Assembly (NCBI GenBank): GCA_951406725.2
Contig: OX597818.1
Span: forward strand, 139,996,001-140,060,000
Reading direction: 5' to 3'
Origin: Octopus vulgaris
Taxonomy: Eukaryota
DNA length: 64,000 nt
Under the pieces are notes generated by a model. The model did no database searches. It had not been told where the DNA came from and saw only the letters and a list, made by a program, of their open reading frames with translations. Below are positions 4,799 to 58,358 of the stretch, one piece after another. A program made the position numbers and the translations under genes. Numbering within the stretch: position 1 is the stretch's first letter; each line of letters opens with the position of its first letter.

Positions 4799-4964
4799 TA
4801 CGACGGGCTTCTTTCAGTTTCCGTCTACCAAATCCACTCTCAAGGCTATGGTCGGCCCGAGGCTATAGTAGAAGACACTTGCCAAAGGTGCCACGACGTG
4901 GGACTGAACCCGGAACCATGTGGTTGGTAAACAAGCTACTTACCACACAGCCACTCCTGCGCCT
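4527..4964 (-). mobile_element. tRNA-derived SINE family A (octopus-type) with internal (TA)n
   Basis: Near-identical to copies at 15.5, 24.7, 26.4, 37.1 and 46.9 kb. It has A/B-box-like TGGCTGTGTGGTAAG and GGTTCAGTCCC and an (AAAAGAGT)n tail. Confidence 0.92.
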
Positions 4965-4974
4965 ATATATATCC

Positions 4975-5310
4975 TTTGAGAAACGCGTATATTGTACAAG
5001 TGAAATTCTGCATGAAGTTGCCATAAAAACTCTAAACACTATGCATATTGTTCTTATAGACATACGACTGTCTTCACCTAGAAAGTTGAGAATTTTCTTA
5101 ACCAGTTCTGATGTTCTGACGTCACTCTCCCTGCCACATATTTCATTATTTATCACCTCCACTCAGGCGTCGTTGAACCATTTGTGCGAGTGGAAAACAG
5201 ATACTGGGCTCATAAAAGTTAATCCATAATGAGTTTGAAGCATTTGATAACTTTCTGTAGATTTTTGCCCTATTTAACACAAAAGATAAGAGCGTAGCAT
5301 GGCTCAAAAT
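4975..5310 (-). pseudogene. mariner transposase N-terminal (HTH) relic
   Basis: Minus-strand pieces read YA..FCVK.GK..TESYQMLQTHYG..MS..SVF.. and EVINNEICGRESDVRTSELVKKILNFLGEDSRMSIRTI (ORF 4863..5162). This fits the mariner DNA-binding region. Confidence 0.65.
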
Positions 5311-5538
5311 TGTATTCACGTCGTGACTGCATTCAGCAAACTAGTCAGTTGTGACAATAACAGTTTAGCTTGGTGTACTCAAAGTGATTTTATAGTCGCC
5401 CCCCTCAATAAGGAATAACAAAAGTTGGCATGTCAGCTTATTAGATGTGTAATAATAATAATAATATACTAAAATTACAATAACCCAGGACAGTCATAAC
5501 TGCCTCTTCAAAAATGTCTGTATCATTCTGAAACACTC

Positions 5539-5853
5539 ATGTATGTACGTATGTATGTATGTATGTATGTATGTATGTATGTATGTATGTATGTATGTAT
5601 GTATGTATTATGAATGTATGTATGTATGTATGCATGTATTATGAATGTATATATGTAGCATGCATGTATGTATGTATGTATTTATGTATGTATGTATGCA
5701 TGTATGTATGTATGCATGCATGTATGTATGTATGTATGCATGCATGTATGTATGTATGTATGTATGCATGTATGTATGTATGTATGTATGCATGTATGTA
5801 TGTATGCATGTATGTATGTATGTATGTATGTATGTATGTATGTATGTATGTAT
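5539..5853. repeat. (TATG)n tetranucleotide microsatellite
   Basis: Seen directly. Similar tracts occur at 3.9, 16.2, 38.0, 43.2 and 61.0 kb. Confidence 0.95.
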
Positions 5854-6204
5854 GAATGTGCGCAGGGAATTATCTAGTTTCTCACGCTTTTGCTTTGGCT
5901 GATCCTCACTTTCCTATAGCCTGCCTGGAATTTACCTCGGTGAGGTTCAGTAGTTTTCATTTTGCATTAGGGTGCAGAAATCTACGGAATATATATAGAA
6001 TGTAAGAGAGATTGTTGATCATGACAACAGCATTGACTTGTAATGCATTATAGTACCACGAACAATAGCAGTATCAAAGAATATTTGGAATTTCACAATA
6101 AATCTACATATTTTTGTTATACATGCACCACGACATGTGTTGCGCTTTCATGAAAAACTTAGAGTATGCACTATAAAGATTTTGATGTTCCTTTTTTATT
6201 TTGT

Positions 6205-6552
6205 GTGAAGGCGCATGCCTCAGTGGTTAGAGCGTCGAGCTTACGATCGTGAGGTTGTGAGCTCGAATCCCGGACCGGGCTGCGTGTTGTGTTCTCGAGC
6301 AAGGCACTTTATTTCACGTTGCTCCAGTTCACTCAGCTGTAGAAATGAGCTGCGACGTCTCTGGTTCCAAGCTGTATCGGCCTTTGCCTTTCCCTTGGAT
6401 AACACTGGTGGCGTGGAGAGGGAAGGCTGGTATGCATGGGCGACTGCTGGCCTTCCATAAACAACCTTGCTCGGACATGTGTCTAGGAGGGTAACTTTCT
6501 AGGTGCAATCCCATGGTCATTCATGACCGAAGGGGGTCTTTACACTTTACCC
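6205..6552 (+). mobile_element. tRNA-derived SINE family D
   Basis: tRNA-like head GGCGCATGCCTCAGTGGTTAGAGCG..CTCGAATCCC, a CTCGAGCAAGGCACTTTATTTCAC core and a (CTTTAC) repeat tail. Confidence 0.8.
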
Positions 6553-7576
6553 TCTTTATTTTTTATTTTATAGGAAAGGATTCGGAAATATTGACAAGGA
6601 AACTGTCAACAAACGTCTTGTAATATATATTTACATGTGTCTGTGTGTGTATCTGTTTATGTGCGTATGTGAGTATGTATTATTTTGTATGTGTGTGCGT
6701 GCATGAGTGTGTGTGTTTGTGTGTATTTATGTGTTTAATTACGCTGCTGTGTGTATTTTCACAGTTAGCTGCTTTCTTTTTCTATCTACATTTCCTAAGT
6801 TGGAAACACCCACTGCACATCAGTCGACGCTTGGCAAATTTAATTTTGTTCCATGAACTTTGATTTTCTTATTATGCAGCGAATTATCGAGAATCCAAAC
6901 CAAAACTATTGCATATCAGCTATTTTCTTATTATAAATGAAAATTGATACAGCAACAATACAAGGGATTCGATGTACAATCATATTTAAGTACGATTATA
7001 GTGAAAATAGTCACAGTTTAGTTATTTCCTATATAATTACTCATCGACATCCTTGTAATATCACCATTAGCAGTAATATAGATATATCAATTGAAATGAA
7101 TGAACACTTTTGGGTTGTATCTTTAGAAACATTTTCTGTATTATCGAGAATAATCAAATAGAAATAGTGATGCGCATTTGGTGACTTCAATGACAAATAA
7201 GCGAATGAATCTATCTAAATGAGCAAATGTGTCTATCCATCTATCTGGCTGTCTGTTTATCTGTCTGTATCTGAATAATAACAAGAGACTTACTGAGAGA
7301 CGGGCACATTAGATAAGTATAAAATATCAGTTACTATTTCTACAATCATTGTTACTAAATGGCGGCTCTTATTCTGGACACAAGCCTATCCGGAGTGATA
7401 ATGATTGTGCTGAACTGCGTAATGCATAGAAATGGAGTGTTGAACATTTCGACCGTGCTCAAAACCTTCGGTAGCATTTCGCATGTGTGTATGTGCTTGT
7501 GTGTTTGCGTGTGTGTGCGCGGGCGTGTGTGCTTGAGTGTATGTGTCTCTGCGTATATGTATGTATATGGTTATGA

Positions 7577-7867: not shown

Positions 7868-8400
7868 CCAGTCGTTGAATGTTGAAGATGTCACTAACCT
7901 CTGGGATTTTCCAGTCAACACTGAAAGACTGATCCAGGTTAAACAACCAGACATAATTATTAAAGATAGGGAAGGAAATACTTGTAGACCAATAGATGTA
8001 AGTGTTCCCACTGATAGAAATATATTTGTAAAGGAATCTTAAAAAATCTTAGTAAATAAAAGGAACTCGAAATTGAAATACTAAGGATGTGACATCTTTA
8101 ACCAAAAACTCGTCGTGTTATTGTAGGTGCCATAAGTATTAGTAAAAGGATTGCAAAAACATCTAGACAATATCCCAGGAAACCCATGTCCCAGAGAAAT
8201 CCAAACGGTTGTACTGACAAGTACTGCCCACATCTTTAGAAAGACCCTGTCAGTTTAAATGTCAGTGGTGTATTACATGGAAATATTTCGCTACTGCCAC
8301 TCCCCACCCAAACTTTCAGCTATGCTGTGACACCTTACTTACCCTAGGGCGCAAGTTGTGTTCCTGCAAGTGATTGCAATAGACATGCAGATTAAAAGTA
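7868..8400 (+). mobile_element. 5'-truncated, degenerate R4/Dong element (same family as 55.5-57.6 kb)
   Basis: Encodes LWDFPVNTERLIQVKQPDIIIKDREGNTCRPIDVSVPTDRN (RLE domain). Its 3' end CATGCAGATTAAAAGTA matches the 3' end of the 55.5-kb copy. Confidence 0.9.
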
Positions 8401-14335: not shown

Positions 14336-15170
14336 GGAAGGCGGCGATCTGGCAGAAACGTTAGCACCCCGGGCGAAATTCTTAGTCTGCCGCTACGTTC
14401 TGAGTTCAAATTCCGCCGCGGTCGACTTTGCCTTTTATCCTTTTAGGGTCTATTAATTAAGTACCACTTACGCACTGGGGTCAATGAAATCGACTTAATC
14501 CCTTTGCCTGTCCTTGTTTGCCCCATCTATGTTTAGCCCCTTGTGGGCAATAAAGAAATAAGAAACGTTATCACCCCGGGCTAAATGCTTAGCGGTATTT
14601 CGTCTGCCGCAACGGCCTGAGTTCAAATTCCGCCGAGGTCGACTTTGCCTTTCATCCTTTCGGGGTCGATTAAATAAGTACCAGTTACGCACTGGGGTCG
14701 ATGTAATCGACTTAATCCGTTTGTCTGTCCTTGCTTGTCCCCTCTGTGTTTAGCCCCTTGTGGGTAGTAAAGAAATAGGTATTTAGTCTGTCTTTACGTT
14801 CTGAGTTCAAATTCCTTCGAGGTCGACTTTGCTTTTCATCTTTTCGGGCTAGATAAATTAAGTGCCAGTTACGCACTGGAGTCGATGTAATCGATTTAAC
14901 CCTTAATCCCTTTGTCTGACCTTGTTTATCCCCTCTATGTTTAGCCCCTTGTGGGCAATAAAGAAATAAGGAACGTTAGCACGCCAGGCGAAATGCTTAG
15001 CAGTATTTCGTCTGTCTTTAAGTTCTGAGTTCTAATTCCGACGAGGTCGACTTTGCCTTTCATCCTTTCGAGGTCGATAAATTAAGTACCAGTTTCGTAC
15101 TGGGGTCGATCTAATCGACTAGCCACCTGCCCCAAAAATCTTTGGGCCTTGTGCCTTGAGCAGAAAAGTG
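14336..15170 (+). mobile_element. Tetrameric array of SINE family C (probable Meta/MESC-like core) with an 11-bp TSD
   Basis: Four head-to-tail units each contain GAGTTC.AATTCC..GGTCGACTTTGC.TTT.ATC. TCGTCCATGTA flanks the array at 14325-14335 and 15171-15181. Confidence 0.9.
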
Positions 15171-24080: not shown

Positions 24081-24129
24081 GGATGATCGTTTTACTGTAA
24101 CAGTTGTATCCACATCCAATTTTGTTAGC

Positions 24130-25405
24130 ATGTTAGATAAAAGTGTCAGTACCAAGCAGAAAGAGAGTGGAGAGAGCGTGTCTCCGTGGAATAGTTCTCT
24201 TTTAATGGGATGTTCAGGAGCTGTGTTCGTTGTTTTGATAGATCTTTTCTAGAGTTGTTCCTTCGCCGACCATATTTCTTTCCAAAGTTCTTTCACTTCT
24301 TCCGCCGTTGGTGCTGCATTGATCCCTATTTTACTTTTGCCAAGTTCTTGGTAGAATATTTTGTAGTTGGAGATGAACGGTTTGTTTTGTTCAATGAAAC
24401 GTTGGCATTTCTCATACCAGCGGATTTTTTGGTGCTTTAACGAGGGTATCTTGCTCTAGCTGTTCTTTTACCTTAGTTATATCTTGTTCTGTAATTTTAT
24501 ATTTACGTAGTATCTTCTCTTTTTGTTACTTAGTAGTGTTGATCGTCTACTTCATTAAGAATTGACAGATCCTTTCATTATTTTCCATTTTTCTGGATAT
24601 TTTCACCCACATTTGTTTCTGTGGCCATTAGTTCTGTGATGACCAGGTTCATGATACTGTCTTTTTACTCTTTTACTTGTTTCAGTCATTTGACTGCGGC
24701 CATGCTGGAGCACCGCCTTTAGTCGAGCAAATCGACCCCGGGACTTATTCTTTGTAAGCCCAGTACTTATTCTATCGGTCTATTTTGCCGAACCGCTAAG
24801 TGACGGGGACGTAAACACACCAGCATCGGTTGTCAAGCAATGCTAGGGAGACAAACACAAACACACATACATATATATACATATATACTACAGGCTTCTT
24901 TCAGTTTCCGTCTACCAAATCCACTCACAAGGCATTGGTCGGCCCGGGGCTATAGTAGAAGACACTTGCCCAAGATGCCACGCAGTGGGACTGAACCCGG
25001 AACCATGTGGTTGGTTAGCAAGCCACTTACCACACAGCCACTCCTGCGCCTATATGTTGTTTATTTTTGATGTTCTTTTATTATTAATTTTAATTAAACA
25101 CTTTCAATACAAGTAACCATCAGATCTGTGGCTTTCAATTGTCTGATTATGGCCATTTTTAGAGTATCATAATCATTAGTATCTCGCTCACCGTTTCCAT
25201 GTTTTAGATATATGTGGTATACCCTCTCGTTCATTTTTTGTCAGTGGTATTCTGGTTTGGTGCATTTTGTTCATCATTACACATTCCTGTGGTCTGGATT
25301 TGTTGTCTTTCGTTGTTTACTTCGTTTTTGCTGGGCATGTTACGTCTGTCTTCGCATTTTATAGTCCCAGTACTAATGCTATTATTTGGCATTGCTGTGT
25401 GGTTA
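24130..25405 (-). mobile_element. Old, internally deleted R4/Dong element interrupted by a SINE
   Basis: Minus strand gives YEKCQRFIEQNKPFISNYKIFYQELGKSKIGINAAPTAEEVKELWKEIW (pre-RT region) joined to IKRELFHGDTLSPLSFCLVL (RT). The upstream end abuts (TAA)n. The extent beyond ~24650 is less certain. Confidence 0.7.
24661..25051 (-). mobile_element. SINE family A
   Basis: Near-identical to the other family-A copies. Confidence 0.92.
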
Positions 25406-25406
25406 C

Positions 25407-25947
<541 letters not shown>

Positions 25948-30157: not shown

Positions 30158-30372
<215 letters not shown>

Positions 30373-30373
30373 T

Positions 30374-30543
30374 TATGTTTGACTTTTGCTTTATGTCTGT
30401 ACTAGTTGGCTCCAAGTCTCCCCCAGAGACCTCAAGAGACAACAGGTTGGAAGTTCACGTTGTTGTTATGCCTAGTGTGCCATATATTTGGGGTTTTTTG
30501 TGTTGTACTAGTGAATGTCTAATACATAAAAAAAGATGTTCGC

Positions 30544-31185: not shown

Positions 31186-31470
31186 TATTTTTCGTTCTCT
31201 TTCTTTCGATCCCTAAATCAAACAGGCATAATGGGTCGATTAGTAAGCAATCTCGCTTTTCCTTATTTATAATTGTTATAGCAAGTCTATTATTTTCTTA
31301 CTTGCCCTTTTGAATAGGGAAGTCCCACAAAATCTTACATTTTTCGGACTTCACTACTTTTTCGACTCGATGATTGTACCACGTGTTTCCAGTTTCAAAT
31401 CCCCAAAGTTTCCAGTGTAAAACTTTTTGCATCCTGGTCGTGCCTCTATCTATTATTCTCTTCCTGTACC

Positions 31471-31542
<72 letters not shown>

Positions 31543-31585
31543 GATTATCATTATTATTATAATGATTATCATTATTATTATAATG

Positions 31586-31650
<65 letters not shown>

Positions 31651-31671
31651 CATTATTATTATTATTATTAT
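31471..31671. repeat. (TAT)n microsatellite
   Basis: Seen directly. Confidence 0.95.
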
Positions 31672-43319: not shown

Positions 43320-44585
43320 GATAAAAAGGTAGGGAACCAATATCTCTCTGAAGCGCTTCAGTCAGTATCCCGTTCAGATGTAATGACATGGGCTCTAGTG
43401 TTGGTGTAGATGAGTGATATCAGGCCCTGTATCTTCTTGGTGATTCCATAAGCCTGTAAGATCTTCATTAGCCAGTGACGGTCCACAGAATGAAAGGCCT
43501 TCCTAAAGTCAATGAAAACCATGACAAAAGGAAAACTATTTAATCTAGTACCCTCTAATAACCTCTTCAGTATTAGGATGTGACTGGTGGTTGATCTTCC
43601 CTCTCTGAAGCCGCTCTGGTTGTCCCTGAGCTTCTTCTCCATCTTGGGCTGGATCCTGTTAAGAATCATCCTGTTGAGCATCTTTGCTACGAGTAATATT
43701 AGTGAAATCCCCCTGTTGTTGTTGGTGTTAGTGATATCTCTCATCTTTGGCACTGGAACGTTGTTACTTATCCTCCACTGATTCGGGACAACTCCTTTTA
43801 TCCAGTGCCTCGTTACAGAACTCTAGGACGATTTCATCAAAATCACACCTCCTCATCACCTCTGGTACTACTCCATCTTCTCCATCGGCCTCTCCGTCCT
43901 TGATTGACTTCTTGGCTCTCTGAAGATCCACTTTGGCGAAGGGACCTATCTCAATTTCCATTTCCTCATCTCCATAGTAGGGTCTTAAAATGGTTCAGCC
44001 ATTTACTCTTCGTATCCTCGGGTCCTGTTAACTGGATCTGACTCTAACTCCCTCTCTTCCCCACTGTTTTTGCGTTGATGATCGTCCAGTTCTATTTACA
44101 CTTAGACCCTCCAACCGCTCTCTCCGCACTTCTGCTCATCTCCAACAGTTCCTTATCTCTGGTCTCAGTGAAAGCAGTACAAAGTTCTTCCTTCATCCCC
44201 TCCACATTCTCCTTCCTCTCCTTCGTAGGATTAGCAAGGAATCGGTGCTTGGCAGCTTTCAGATGTTCTCTAGCTGCACACACTTTTGGGTCTGCAGAGC
44301 TAACGTTCCTCCTCTTCTTCTCTCCCATTGGCACCAGGTCGTCACTTGCTTCTGCCACTTCTTTGGTGAAGTACCCGTACCCGCTCGTCACACTCTCACC
44401 AGTCCCTCCAATCTCTATCTTGTCTGTCACTCCCTACAGAGTACTGAACCTGTACCTCACTTCACTGTGTACCTCTCCTGCAGTTTATCATCTACCTTGA
44501 AAGTTCCCCAGCCATAGATTGCTCTCCGGGGCTGAGTCTTACTATTTCTTAAGGGCACATTTAACAAGCCTGTTGTCACTGCCCA
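43320..44585 (-). mobile_element. RTE-type LINE fragment (end of AP endonuclease plus N-terminal half of RT), frameshifted
   Basis: SDNRLVKC (SDH-like motif), then ORFs 44092..44430, 43764..43961 and 43358..43753 with NRGISL..AKMLNRMILNRI..NQSGFREGRST..FIDFRKAFHSVDR. Confidence 0.88.
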
Positions 44586-55015: not shown

Positions 55016-55038
55016 ACATCATTATAATTATTATTATT

Positions 55039-55431
55039 CTATGTTTGAATTTTGCTTTACGTTTGTACAAGTTGGCTCCAAGTCTCACCCAGAGACCTCA
55101 AGAGACAACCAGTTGGAAGTTCATGTTGGTGTTATGCCTAGGATGCCATATATTTGGTTTTGTACTTAGTGTTGTACTAGTGAATGTCTAAAAAAACATA
55201 CGAAAATTATGTTTGTTTTAAAACTTGAGATTACATAGAAAGTATTTTGCGTAGGATATGAGCATTTCCCATGAAAACTATCTTTTGAATTTCTGCCATT
55301 TTGGGGTTTCCGTGTATCTGAGTTAGGTAGCAATCAGCCCCTTTTGCTATCATTCCCAGGGCGCCTAGGACAACAGGTATTGTTTTAGTCTTCAGGTTCC
55401 ACATTTTGCTGATTTCTATTTCAAGATCTTT
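55039..55431 (-). mobile_element. R4/Dong family 2, heavily 5'-truncated (RLE C-terminus plus 3' UTR) in (TAA)n
   Basis: KDLEIEISKMWNLKTKTIPVVLGALGMI..IQKIVFMGNAHILRKILSM, with a 3' UTR distinct from family 1. (TAA)/(TGA)n lies on both sides. Confidence 0.9.
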
Positions 55432-55482
55432 ATTACTATTATTATTATTATTATTATTATTATTATCATCATCATTGTCATT

Positions 55483-57570
55483 TACTTTTAATCTGCATGT
55501 TTGATGCAATCACCTGCCGGGGCACACCCAGCGCCCTAGGGCAAGTGAAGGTTAAGAGTTGTTGAAATATAGCTGAAAGCTTGGGGAGGGGAAGTAGAGA
55601 TATATCTCCATGTAATGCAAACACAGACATTTACATTGATAGGGTTTTTCTAAGTATGTGGGCAGTACTTGTTAGCACAATCTTTTGGATTTCCTTGAGA
55701 CATGGTTTTCCAGGGATATTGTCTAGGTGTTTCTGACATCCCTTTTTTATCATACCTAGGGCACCTACAATAACAGGAACAGTTTTTGTTTTAAGATTCC
55801 ACATCCTCTGTATTTCGATTTCTAGGTCATTATATTTACTAAGTTTGTCAAATTCCTTGACAGATACATTTTTATCAGTGGGGACGCTTACTTCTATTAG
55901 TCTGCAGGTATTTTCTTCCCTGTCTTTAAACAATTATGTCTGGTCGATTAGCCTTGATCGTTCTGTCAGTGTTGACTGGAAAATCCCAGAGGATGGTGAC
56001 ATCTTTACCTTCAACAACTGGCTGAGGATGGTGTTCATACCAGTTAGCAGGAGTGTCGGATTTGTAGTGTTTACATATCTTCCAATGTATATACTGTCCT
56101 ACCCTATCGTGGCGATTTTTGTATTCGTTTGGTGTCAGCACAGGACATCCCGAAACGAGATGGTCTATCGTTTCGTCAAATGTGTCGCAGAATCTGCATT
56201 TAAGGTCAGTACCGTTTCGGAGAACGTTAGCCTGGTAATTTCTGGTAAACAAGCTTTGATCTTGTGCTGCCATTATGAAACCTTCAGTCTCTGCTTTCAA
56301 TCCAGAGCTCTTCAGCCACTGATGGGTTGTTGCTTGGTCTACATCAGCATTTTGGCTTCGGAGAATATATTGTCCATGCAGGGGCTTCTGGCTCCACCGC
56401 CTCTCAATTTGATTCTGCCCGTTCTTTTTTGCAGTCTGCTTGATTCGTTTTGCTTGCTTGGTAGCAGTGGTTTCCGGCTCTTCATCTGATTCAAGGTTAA
56501 TGTCTAGTTCCCTTTCGAACTTATAAGCTTCCTTGACAATAGAATGCAGCTTTTTGTTGCTTTCGTGTTCGCGCACAAGTCGCAGCATCCAGTCCTTTGT
56601 ACTAGATAGGTACCTGTTCATTCCTACAGTAGAGGTCTTATAGCACAGCTCTAATTGCATCATTCCTCTCCCCCCGCTGCTTCTAGGTAGGTACAAGCGG
56701 TCTACATCTGCCTTAGGGTGGTGCATGCTCTTGGATGTCAGTAACTTTCTTGTCTTCCTGTCTAAGCGTTGGAGTTCCGTAAGGTTCCAGTTAATGATAT
56801 TAAAACTGTACTGGACTACTGGAAGTGCCAGGGTGTTAATGGCCTCAATGCAATTTTTGGAGTTGAGTTCAGTCTTCAGTACAAGCCTTATTCTCCTATA
56901 GTATTCCTTTCTTATTTTTTCCTTCATAGTAGCATGATGTATACCATCTCCTTCGTTGATTCCTAGGTATTTGTAACTTTCCTGTGGGTCAAGTTCCTTG
57001 ATGGTAGTGTCAATATCTAATTTAACAGAAGCTGTTTGCCTGAGCTTGCCTCTTACGAAAGTTGCTTTAGCACACTTATCAAGGCCAAAATCCATTCCGA
57101 TATCATTGCTAAACTCTTTAACAGTTGTTAGCAGCCCTTCTAGCTCTTGGTCATTCCTGGCAAACAGCTTTAGGTCGTCCATATAGAAAAGATGGTTTAT
57201 TAATTTACTAAAAACTTTGTACCCATATCTAGTACTATCCAATTCGTTTGAGAGTGGGATCAGTGCCATGCAAAAAAGTAATGGAGAGAGGGAGTCACCT
57301 TGAAAGATGCCTCGTTTGATGTTGATGCTGTTGGACTGGCTCATCCCATTACTATGGCTTAGAAAGAGACGTGTGTTCCACATGGTCATGCTATTCTCTA
57401 AGAATTTTGAGACGACAGGAGAGATCTTGTATATCTCAAGGGCCTTGAGTATCCATTTATGTGGGACACTGTCATACGCTTTCCTGTAGTCTATCCATGC
57501 CATACTCAGGTTTTTGTTTTTGCTCCGGCAATTCTCTACAATCATTTTGTTTATGAGCAATTGGTCTTTG
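55483..57570 (-). mobile_element. 5'-truncated R4/Dong-type non-LTR retrotransposon, family 1
   Basis: RT, CCHC and RLE coding region plus a ~150-bp 3' UTR, flanked by (TAA)n on both sides. (TAA)n is the known target of Dong elements. Confidence 0.93.
55631..57568 (-). pseudogene. Reverse transcriptase-CCHC-restriction-like endonuclease ORF, N-terminally truncated with one frameshift
   Basis: ORF 55926..57560 has WIDYRKAYDSVPH, GIFQGDSLSPLLF, HLFYMDDLKL, CRFC..TIDHLVSGC and RPDIIV. After a 1-nt insertion at ~55929 it continues in ORF 55631..55933 (KDREENTCRLIEVSVP..K). Confidence 0.92.
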
Positions 57571-57809
57571 TTATGTTTATGAGCAATTGGTCTTTGTTTT
57601 GTTTATGAGCAATTGGTCTTTGTTTTGTTTATGAGCAATTGGTCTTTGTTTTGTTTATGAGCAATTGGTCTTTGTTTTGTTTATGAGCAATTGGTCTTTG
57701 TTTTGTTTATGAGCAATTGGTCTTTGTTTTGTTTATGAGCAATTGGTCTTTGTTTTGTTTATGAGCAATTGGTCTTTGTTTTGTTTATGAGCAATTGGTC
57801 TTTGTTTTG

Positions 57810-57814
<5 letters not shown>
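57545..57814. repeat. 10 tandem copies (plus a partial) of a 26-bp unit equal to the element's own 5'-terminal 26 nt
   Basis: The unit is TTTTGTTTATGAGCAATTGGTCTTTG. GAGCAATT recurs every 26 bp from 57555 to 57789, with one substitution at 57573, and the array grades into (TTA)n. Confidence 0.97.
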
Positions 57815-57868
<54 letters not shown>

Positions 57869-57877
57869 ATACATACA

Positions 57878-58358
57878 TGCTTAGCCGTATTTCGTCTGCC
57901 GTACGTTGTGAGATCAAATTCCGCCGAGGTCGACTTTGCCTTTAATCCTTTCGGGGTCGATAAATTAAGTACCAGTTACGCACTGGGGTCGATGTAATCG
58001 ACTTAATCCGTTTGTCTGTCCTTGTTTGTCCCCTCTATGTTTAGCCGCTACGTTCTGAGTTCAAATTCTGCCGAGGTCGACTTTTCCTTTCATCATTACG
58101 GGGTCGATTAAATAAGTACCAGTTACGCACTGGGGTCTATGTAATCGATTTAATCCGTTTGTCTGTCCTTGTCTGTCCCCTCTGTGTTTACTCCTTGTGG
58201 GTAGTAAAGAAATAGGTATTTAGCCTGCTGTTAAGTTCTGAGTTCAAGTCGATAAATTAAGTGCCAGTTACGCACTGGGATCGATATAATCGACTCAATC
58301 CCTGTTTGTCCTTGTTTGTCCCCTCTATGTTTAGCCCCATGTGGGCAAAAATAAATAA
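57878..58358 (+). mobile_element. Trimeric 5'-truncated array of SINE family C
   Basis: Three units with AAGT.CCAGTTACGCACTGGG..GTCCTTGT.TGTCCCCTCT.TGTTTA. Confidence 0.85.

Follow-up and report, generated by a model that had tools for sequence, protein, structure and literature searches.

The locus lies in an AT-rich, microsatellite-dense animal genome, and all positions below refer to the window, by which we mean the whole 64-kb stretch of DNA analyzed. On the minus strand, a (TAA)19 run is followed by a 10-nt partial unit, ten 26-nt units and the body of a 5′-truncated retrotransposon, which was inserted in a TAA run at the 5′ end of an older Dong-type fragment (Table 1).

Table 1. Features of the studied insertion and its immediate surroundings (window positions)
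Feature	Position	Strand	Basis or remark
Perfect (TAA)19 target run, 5′ side	57811-57867	-	TRF
Incomplete outermost copy (final 10 nt of the unit)	57805-57814	-	First 4 nt, ATAA (57811-57814), common with the target run
Ten full copies of the 26-nt unit	57545-57804	-	TRF and unit-by-unit comparison
Innermost unit, true 5′ end of the truncated element	57545-57570	-	Unit-by-unit comparison
RT, thumb and CCHC region of the 5′-truncated element	55929-57570	-	547 aa; RVT_1 E 4.6e-22; homologues up to 75% identical
Restriction-like endonuclease C-terminus, out of frame	55631-55931	-	One extra base near 55928-55931
3′ untranslated region and degenerate start of 3′ tail	55467-55630	-	
(TAA)n tail and target run, 3′ side	55430-55466	-	TRF
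Older 3′ fragment belonging to another Dong-type family, immediately downstream	55030-55428	-	

The element body carries a 547-aa frame running from 57569 to 55929, which includes a reverse transcriptase (RT; RVT_1) and a CCHC region, with the end of the endonuclease in another frame. The RT is related to that of R2: besides the RVT_1 match, all five PDB sequences matched were R2 or RT-like proteins (best E 4.3e-38). In alignment with homologues, the RT is followed by two motifs that we take to be a CCHC knuckle and a PD-(D/E)xK nuclease; in the studied copy, the second of the conserved D residues in the endonuclease motif is replaced by E (55892), and the extra base at 55928-55931 shifts the frame. 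Homologues were abundant, with identities of at most 75%, and their full-length forms measured about 1,100-1,250 aa. TAA runs flank the element on both sides and a TAA tail is present; relatives at 40-70% identity likewise adjoin TAA runs, and Dong elements are described as (TAA)n-targeting (PMC3812793). The Dong/R4-type identity proposed in the initial annotation agrees with both the architecture and the TAA target, and we file the element as putatively Dong/R4-type on these two features; no clade-named Dong/R4 reference was among the homologue matches obtained in the protein and structure searches. Like Dong elements, the studied copy has TAA runs on both sides and the domain order RT, CCHC, restriction-like endonuclease; its junction array alone is unusual. 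By number of insertions, Dong-R4 ranks first among the recently active LINE groups in Table 1 of PMC13282606. The family is high-copy, with 4,845-6,587 contigs matched per run in four runs. Part of the studied stretch was matched in 20 of the 24 listed runs, contigs throughout, with no RNA dataset among them.

TRF reported the array at 57545-57814 with a period of 26, 10.4 copies and 99% matches, and the adjoining target run at 57811-57867 as a perfect (TTA)19 in forward-strand letters. Together with the unit-by-unit comparison, this confirmed the tenfold 26-nt reiteration with one variant base described initially: nine of the ten units are identical, and in unit 2 (57571-57596) the A at unit position 24, which is window position 57573, is replaced by T. 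The earlier reading of the unit as KDQLLINK in the RT frame holds for the innermost unit; since 26 is not divisible by 3, the RT frame recurs in every third copy only, and stops occur in each frame. The outermost copy was likewise correctly recognized as partial and as overlapping the TAA run by ATAA. No other array in the 64 kb has a unit of at least 20 nt and more than 4 copies (TRF). The presence and copy number of the array are known here from assembled sequence, and the comparison runs consist of contigs, which cover two inner units. Among the 15 joints listed, with 154 more in the contigs of the four runs, none was at 57570. The array is real and striking, a finding that so far concerns a single locus, with no evident function or sign of one.

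Because the copy number rests on assembled sequence, it could be an assembly or library artefact in which a real two- or three-copy repeat was unrolled to ten. However, the window contains no N bases, one unit carries a distinct base and the array ends join cleanly; an assembler loop would, moreover, presuppose a unit-to-unit join in the reads. We consider such an artefact unlikely.

Family contigs revealed the parent sequence. They depart from the window sequence exactly at 57570 and run on as coding sequence (KGCKRNSYGC) in 8, 13 and 14 contigs of runs X1, X2 and X4, respectively; the parent sequence thus comes from three of the four runs, X6 not being among the matches listed (1917 more exist). 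Among homologues, GC precedes the KDQ-type motif in 89 of 101 motif matches (first 125 homologues). Since the family contigs continue at 57570 with ordinary coding sequence, the array, as judged from contig sequences, is not part of the parent family and starts at the truncation point, where the initial annotation had placed the beginning of the unit. That annotation had tied the origin of the array to the 5′ join and had named arrays inside full-length elements as contrary evidence; the parent family contigs are without the array, which is made of the terminal coding sequence of the element and starts at the join.

The joins differ in their chemistry. The outer join shares the 4-nt microhomology ATAA with the target, within the 1-5 nt typical of truncated R1/R2 joins (PMC2718515). 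For the inner, unit-to-unit join, comparison with the parent gives a microhomology of 0 at period 26, 4 (CAAA) at period 21 and 2 (TG) at period 28. Telomerase likewise extends a DNA end with identical short repeats beside an RT template, realigning through base pairing within its own template. Such realignment, which the initial annotation had invoked, is not supported here, because it would yield 21- or 28-nt units rather than 26-nt units: at period 26, the end of the product has no bases that would pair anew at the opposite end of the template. With zero microhomology at 26, the first inner join would be blunt, an end-to-end jump, or the outcome of two short slips (over AAA and then CAAA). 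In any case, it creates a 10-nt direct repeat with its copies 26 nt apart.

The ten inner joins are identical to the base and free of added bases. By comparison, the R2 RT adds 1-5 untemplated nucleotides, with pyrimidines added poorly (PMC8594491), and inserts made by end joining are short, imperfect patchworks, mostly <25 bp (PMC12426944, PMC2895639). Ten independent events should differ, yet the ten joins do not; this points to a single join amplified at the DNA level.

From the anatomy, the parent sequence and the microhomology counts, all observed directly, we infer that a single abortive template switch at 5′ joining left a 10-nt direct repeat, which was then expanded by DNA slippage. 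Seeding by an abortive switch and amplification by slippage each seem likely, and we assign the reading as a whole a probability of roughly 0.55. The target end (...TAATAA) would have primed on the cDNA at an internal ATAA (unit positions 17-20), and synthesis would have halted after 6 nt. The end would then have been rejoined at the cDNA terminus (position 1), either bluntly or via two short slips over AAA and CAAA, resulting in the 10-nt direct repeat, 26 nt apart. Slippage between these repeats would have copied the single join to 10.4 units, either in the same repair event or later, next to an unstable, re-cuttable TAA run.

Minisatellites born by slippage are recognized by a terminal unit that is incomplete and by direct repeats of 5-10 bp on their flanks; a short direct repeat of this kind is also described as the substrate from which they arise (PMC3389668). 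Here, the 10-nt partial copy provides such an end unit, although the rival readings expect a partial copy too. In the human survey of PMC3389668, 136 repeats are partial Alu copies at the Alu 5′ end beside the endonuclease site. Such minisatellites derived from transposable elements, together with the Haber-Louis and Taylor-Breden models as cited there, resemble the present array in the element-derived tandem unit, the position at the 5′ end, the adjacent endonuclease target and the incomplete end unit. The differences are that ten near-perfect copies are found here in a young element, and that the seed repeat is absent from the parent and must have been made at joining. Moreover, the repeats derived from transposable elements in that survey are mostly two units long, which counts against slippage here, as does the first inner join with its zero microhomology, which needs a blunt join or two slips. 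Templated insertions in polymerase theta end joining are also comparable, in that they involve microhomology priming, abortive synthesis and re-joining, and can iterate (PMC12426944, PMC2895639). These inserts are mostly <25 bp and patchwork, in contrast to the 244 extra bases in one exact register found here. Truncated R1/R2 joins and R2 transgenes show the same 1-5 nt of outer microhomology, and duplicated or extra sequence occurs in them (PMC2718515, PMC11371274). The join categories in the available parts of these sources (join, snap-back, extra template, target duplications and whole-template tandems) do not, however, include a many-fold repeat of an element's own truncated terminus.

The pace of expansion also bears on slippage. 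The element is young: the studied copy differs from the family majority at 10-15 sites in 2091 bp, or at least 0.5-0.7%, a lower bound taken from the 40 listed of 236 difference rows, and by one extra base. The window contains ten other non-microsatellite direct-repeat seeds (>=10 bp, 15-45 bp apart), and these reach a maximum of 3.4 copies. Ten copies in a young element, against at most 3.4 at the other seeds, argue against slow ordinary slippage. Expansion would need to have been fast, whether it took place during the repair event or was promoted by the neighbouring TAA run, which is both slippage-prone and the cutting target of the family. If the array were as old as the insertion, 1.2-1.8 changes would be expected in its 244 extra bases, and 1 was observed. 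The variant count neither favours nor excludes later expansion, and decay of conserved residues (1 change in 209 columns) is too small for dating. Post-insertion expansion, which the initial annotation had listed as an alternative, is part of our best reading; the age comparison does not tell the models apart.

The array could instead have been written during integration. A second-strand polymerase, either the element RT or a host enzyme, would copy cDNA positions 1-26, stall at a fixed block, release and, over ten rounds, return to one and the same free 3′ end of the cDNA, with no small RNA required. The Dong/R4 RT or its host partner would thus have produced the array in one event by a telomerase-like addition without base-paired realignment. 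The reiterative copying initially proposed is not supported as far as base pairing is concerned, but in this form, with jumps that land repeatedly on the 3′ end of the cDNA, it is simpler than capture of small RNAs; we regard it as the main rival, serious though less probable than our best reading. It accounts for every unit starting at the truncation point with zero microhomology, one tethered template raises no concentration problem, and the one variant base agrees with an array that dates from the insertion. That the ten other seeds in the window remained unexpanded also speaks for it, as does the observation that R2-type RTs engage template 3′ ends, RNA or DNA, with 0-2 base pairs and cross at least 10 templates in vitro (PMC8594491). 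Conversely, synthesis would have to stop at exactly position 26 each of the ten times, every join would have to form with no base added, and a 26-bp duplex would have to be unwound in each round; no comparable array was found at 19 other junctions (see below). A hairpin with position 26 in its loop was considered as the block and rejected as chance-level (RNA z -0.14; 9-22% of 2041 windows equal it). On one strand, two adjacent units form a fold of -7.9 kcal/mol that outperforms 97-99% of arrays built from shuffled units; this two-unit fold was matched by 21% of other 26-mers of the element, and the other strand was unremarkable.

Zero microhomology would also fit an RT that jumped end to end, in series, onto ten copies of a sense RNA of 26 nt. 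This RNA might be a ping-pong piRNA with the same 5′ end as a sliced transcript. Secondary piRNAs of the oyster measure about 25 nt and show a 10A bias (PMC6128900), and in cells, additional RNAs are picked up by R2 proteins at 5′ joins (PMC11371274). The unit does have a piRNA-like length, 26 nt against about 25-29 nt for ping-pong piRNAs, and the A at position 10 to which the initial annotation drew attention, but A occupies 14 of the 26 unit positions (54%), so 10A says little. In addition, the extra templates captured by R2 are almost always U6, an abundant RNA (PMC11371274), and the unit ends in A, so that pairing would need an added T, whereas the R2 enzyme adds pyrimidines poorly (PMC8594491). 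Ten captures of a single species from a complex pool, with identical ends, joins without added bases and no other RNA, would be improbable. We therefore regard serial piRNA capture, as initially suggested, as very unlikely. In a variant of this reading, a single captured small RNA may have served as the seed, followed by slippage.

Identical joins with zero microhomology would likewise be produced by rolling reverse transcription around a 26-nt RNA loop, either a circle or a template whose 5′ end is linked to A26. There is no evidence for such an RNA, an undescribed ligation at that site would be required, and the sole variant lies at position 24, away from the join; this route seems extremely improbable.

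We surveyed 83 loci of relatives for similar junctions, of which 80 were kept from 155 in metagenome contigs and 3 came from genome contigs; they represent other organisms and short-read assemblies, which break at long arrays and under-report them. No relatives were found in viral contigs, and the join pattern of the array was not found in metagenome contigs. The survey yielded 21 TAA-anchored junction rows, corresponding to 19 distinct junctions (L020/L021 and L070/L074 being pairs), with 17 in the fetched loci and 2 in the window. A repeat of an element unit of at least 10 nt was present in none of these 19 other junctions. The junction filter demands that homology begin no more than 70 nt from the TAA run and is thus blind to long arrays, so TRF was run over the 83 loci. 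A single TRF array abutted a 5′ start: in L006 (192-429), a 16-nt unit repeated 14.9 times with 90% matches stands directly before a nearly full-length truncated relative. It was not counted as a comparable array, since its unit is unlike the expected coding sequence and no TAA run precedes it. In L045 (143-168), an 8-nt unit in three perfect copies straddles the 5′ join, a small analogue of the studied array whose parent was deduced from homologues only. L070 and L074 contain one junction in two assemblies, with three and four AAGAAT units, respectively, and differing TAA counts; the same junction with different unit numbers indicates that junction repeats change after insertion. No peptide tandem was found at a junction, and 1 of the 358 proteins has one elsewhere. 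In the literature, searched by title and abstract start, such an array was not described, and the available parts of 10.1101/2024.12.14.628481, PMC13580325 and PMC2912911 hold nothing specific on one.

How truncated non-LTR insertions are joined at their 5′ ends is still debated, and the origins of minisatellites are largely unexplained. This locus records a minisatellite with a known parent sequence and a seed made at a retrotransposon join. Allele sizes, together with a survey of junctions across this abundant family, could distinguish a birth in a single integration event from later slippage. If reiteration did occur at integration, it would constitute an instant route from retrotransposition to minisatellites and would matter for R2-based gene insertion tools.

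Other elements in the window and among the relatives are as follows. The older fragment at 55030-55428 (-) and another at 30356-30522 (-) are both 3′ pieces from a second Dong-type family. They match each other to 87.6% over 170 bp, and each is placed after a TAA run; judging from homologue codons, the join at 55428 apparently uses ATAA microhomology too. A degenerate 3′ fragment at 7868-8400 (+) is related to the studied family (79.7% identity). At 31313-31671 (-), another truncated RLE fragment follows a long TAA run. Within this run, TAA variants make up a 21-nt compound unit that recurs, which shows slippage at TAA targets. The interval 25403-25947 (-) contains about 350 bp between two TAA runs, with no homology detected to element proteins, and is possibly a non-autonomous element on the same target. 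Short fragments of other RT-bearing elements occur at 43394-43585 (-) and 24126-24206 (-). SINE-like tandem partial copies with periods of 147 and 217 are found at 57898-58190, just beyond the TAA target, and at 14385-14777, respectively; the flanking SINEs presumably resemble octopus SINEs. Among the relatives, L076 (1996-2128) has two copies of a 66-nt unit consisting of the element 3′ end and TAA tail. Finally, a cyanobacterial metagenome-assembled genome includes short contigs that carry L081 and L082, Dong-type elements accompanied by TAA runs; these contigs are probably animal DNA binned with the cyanobacterium.
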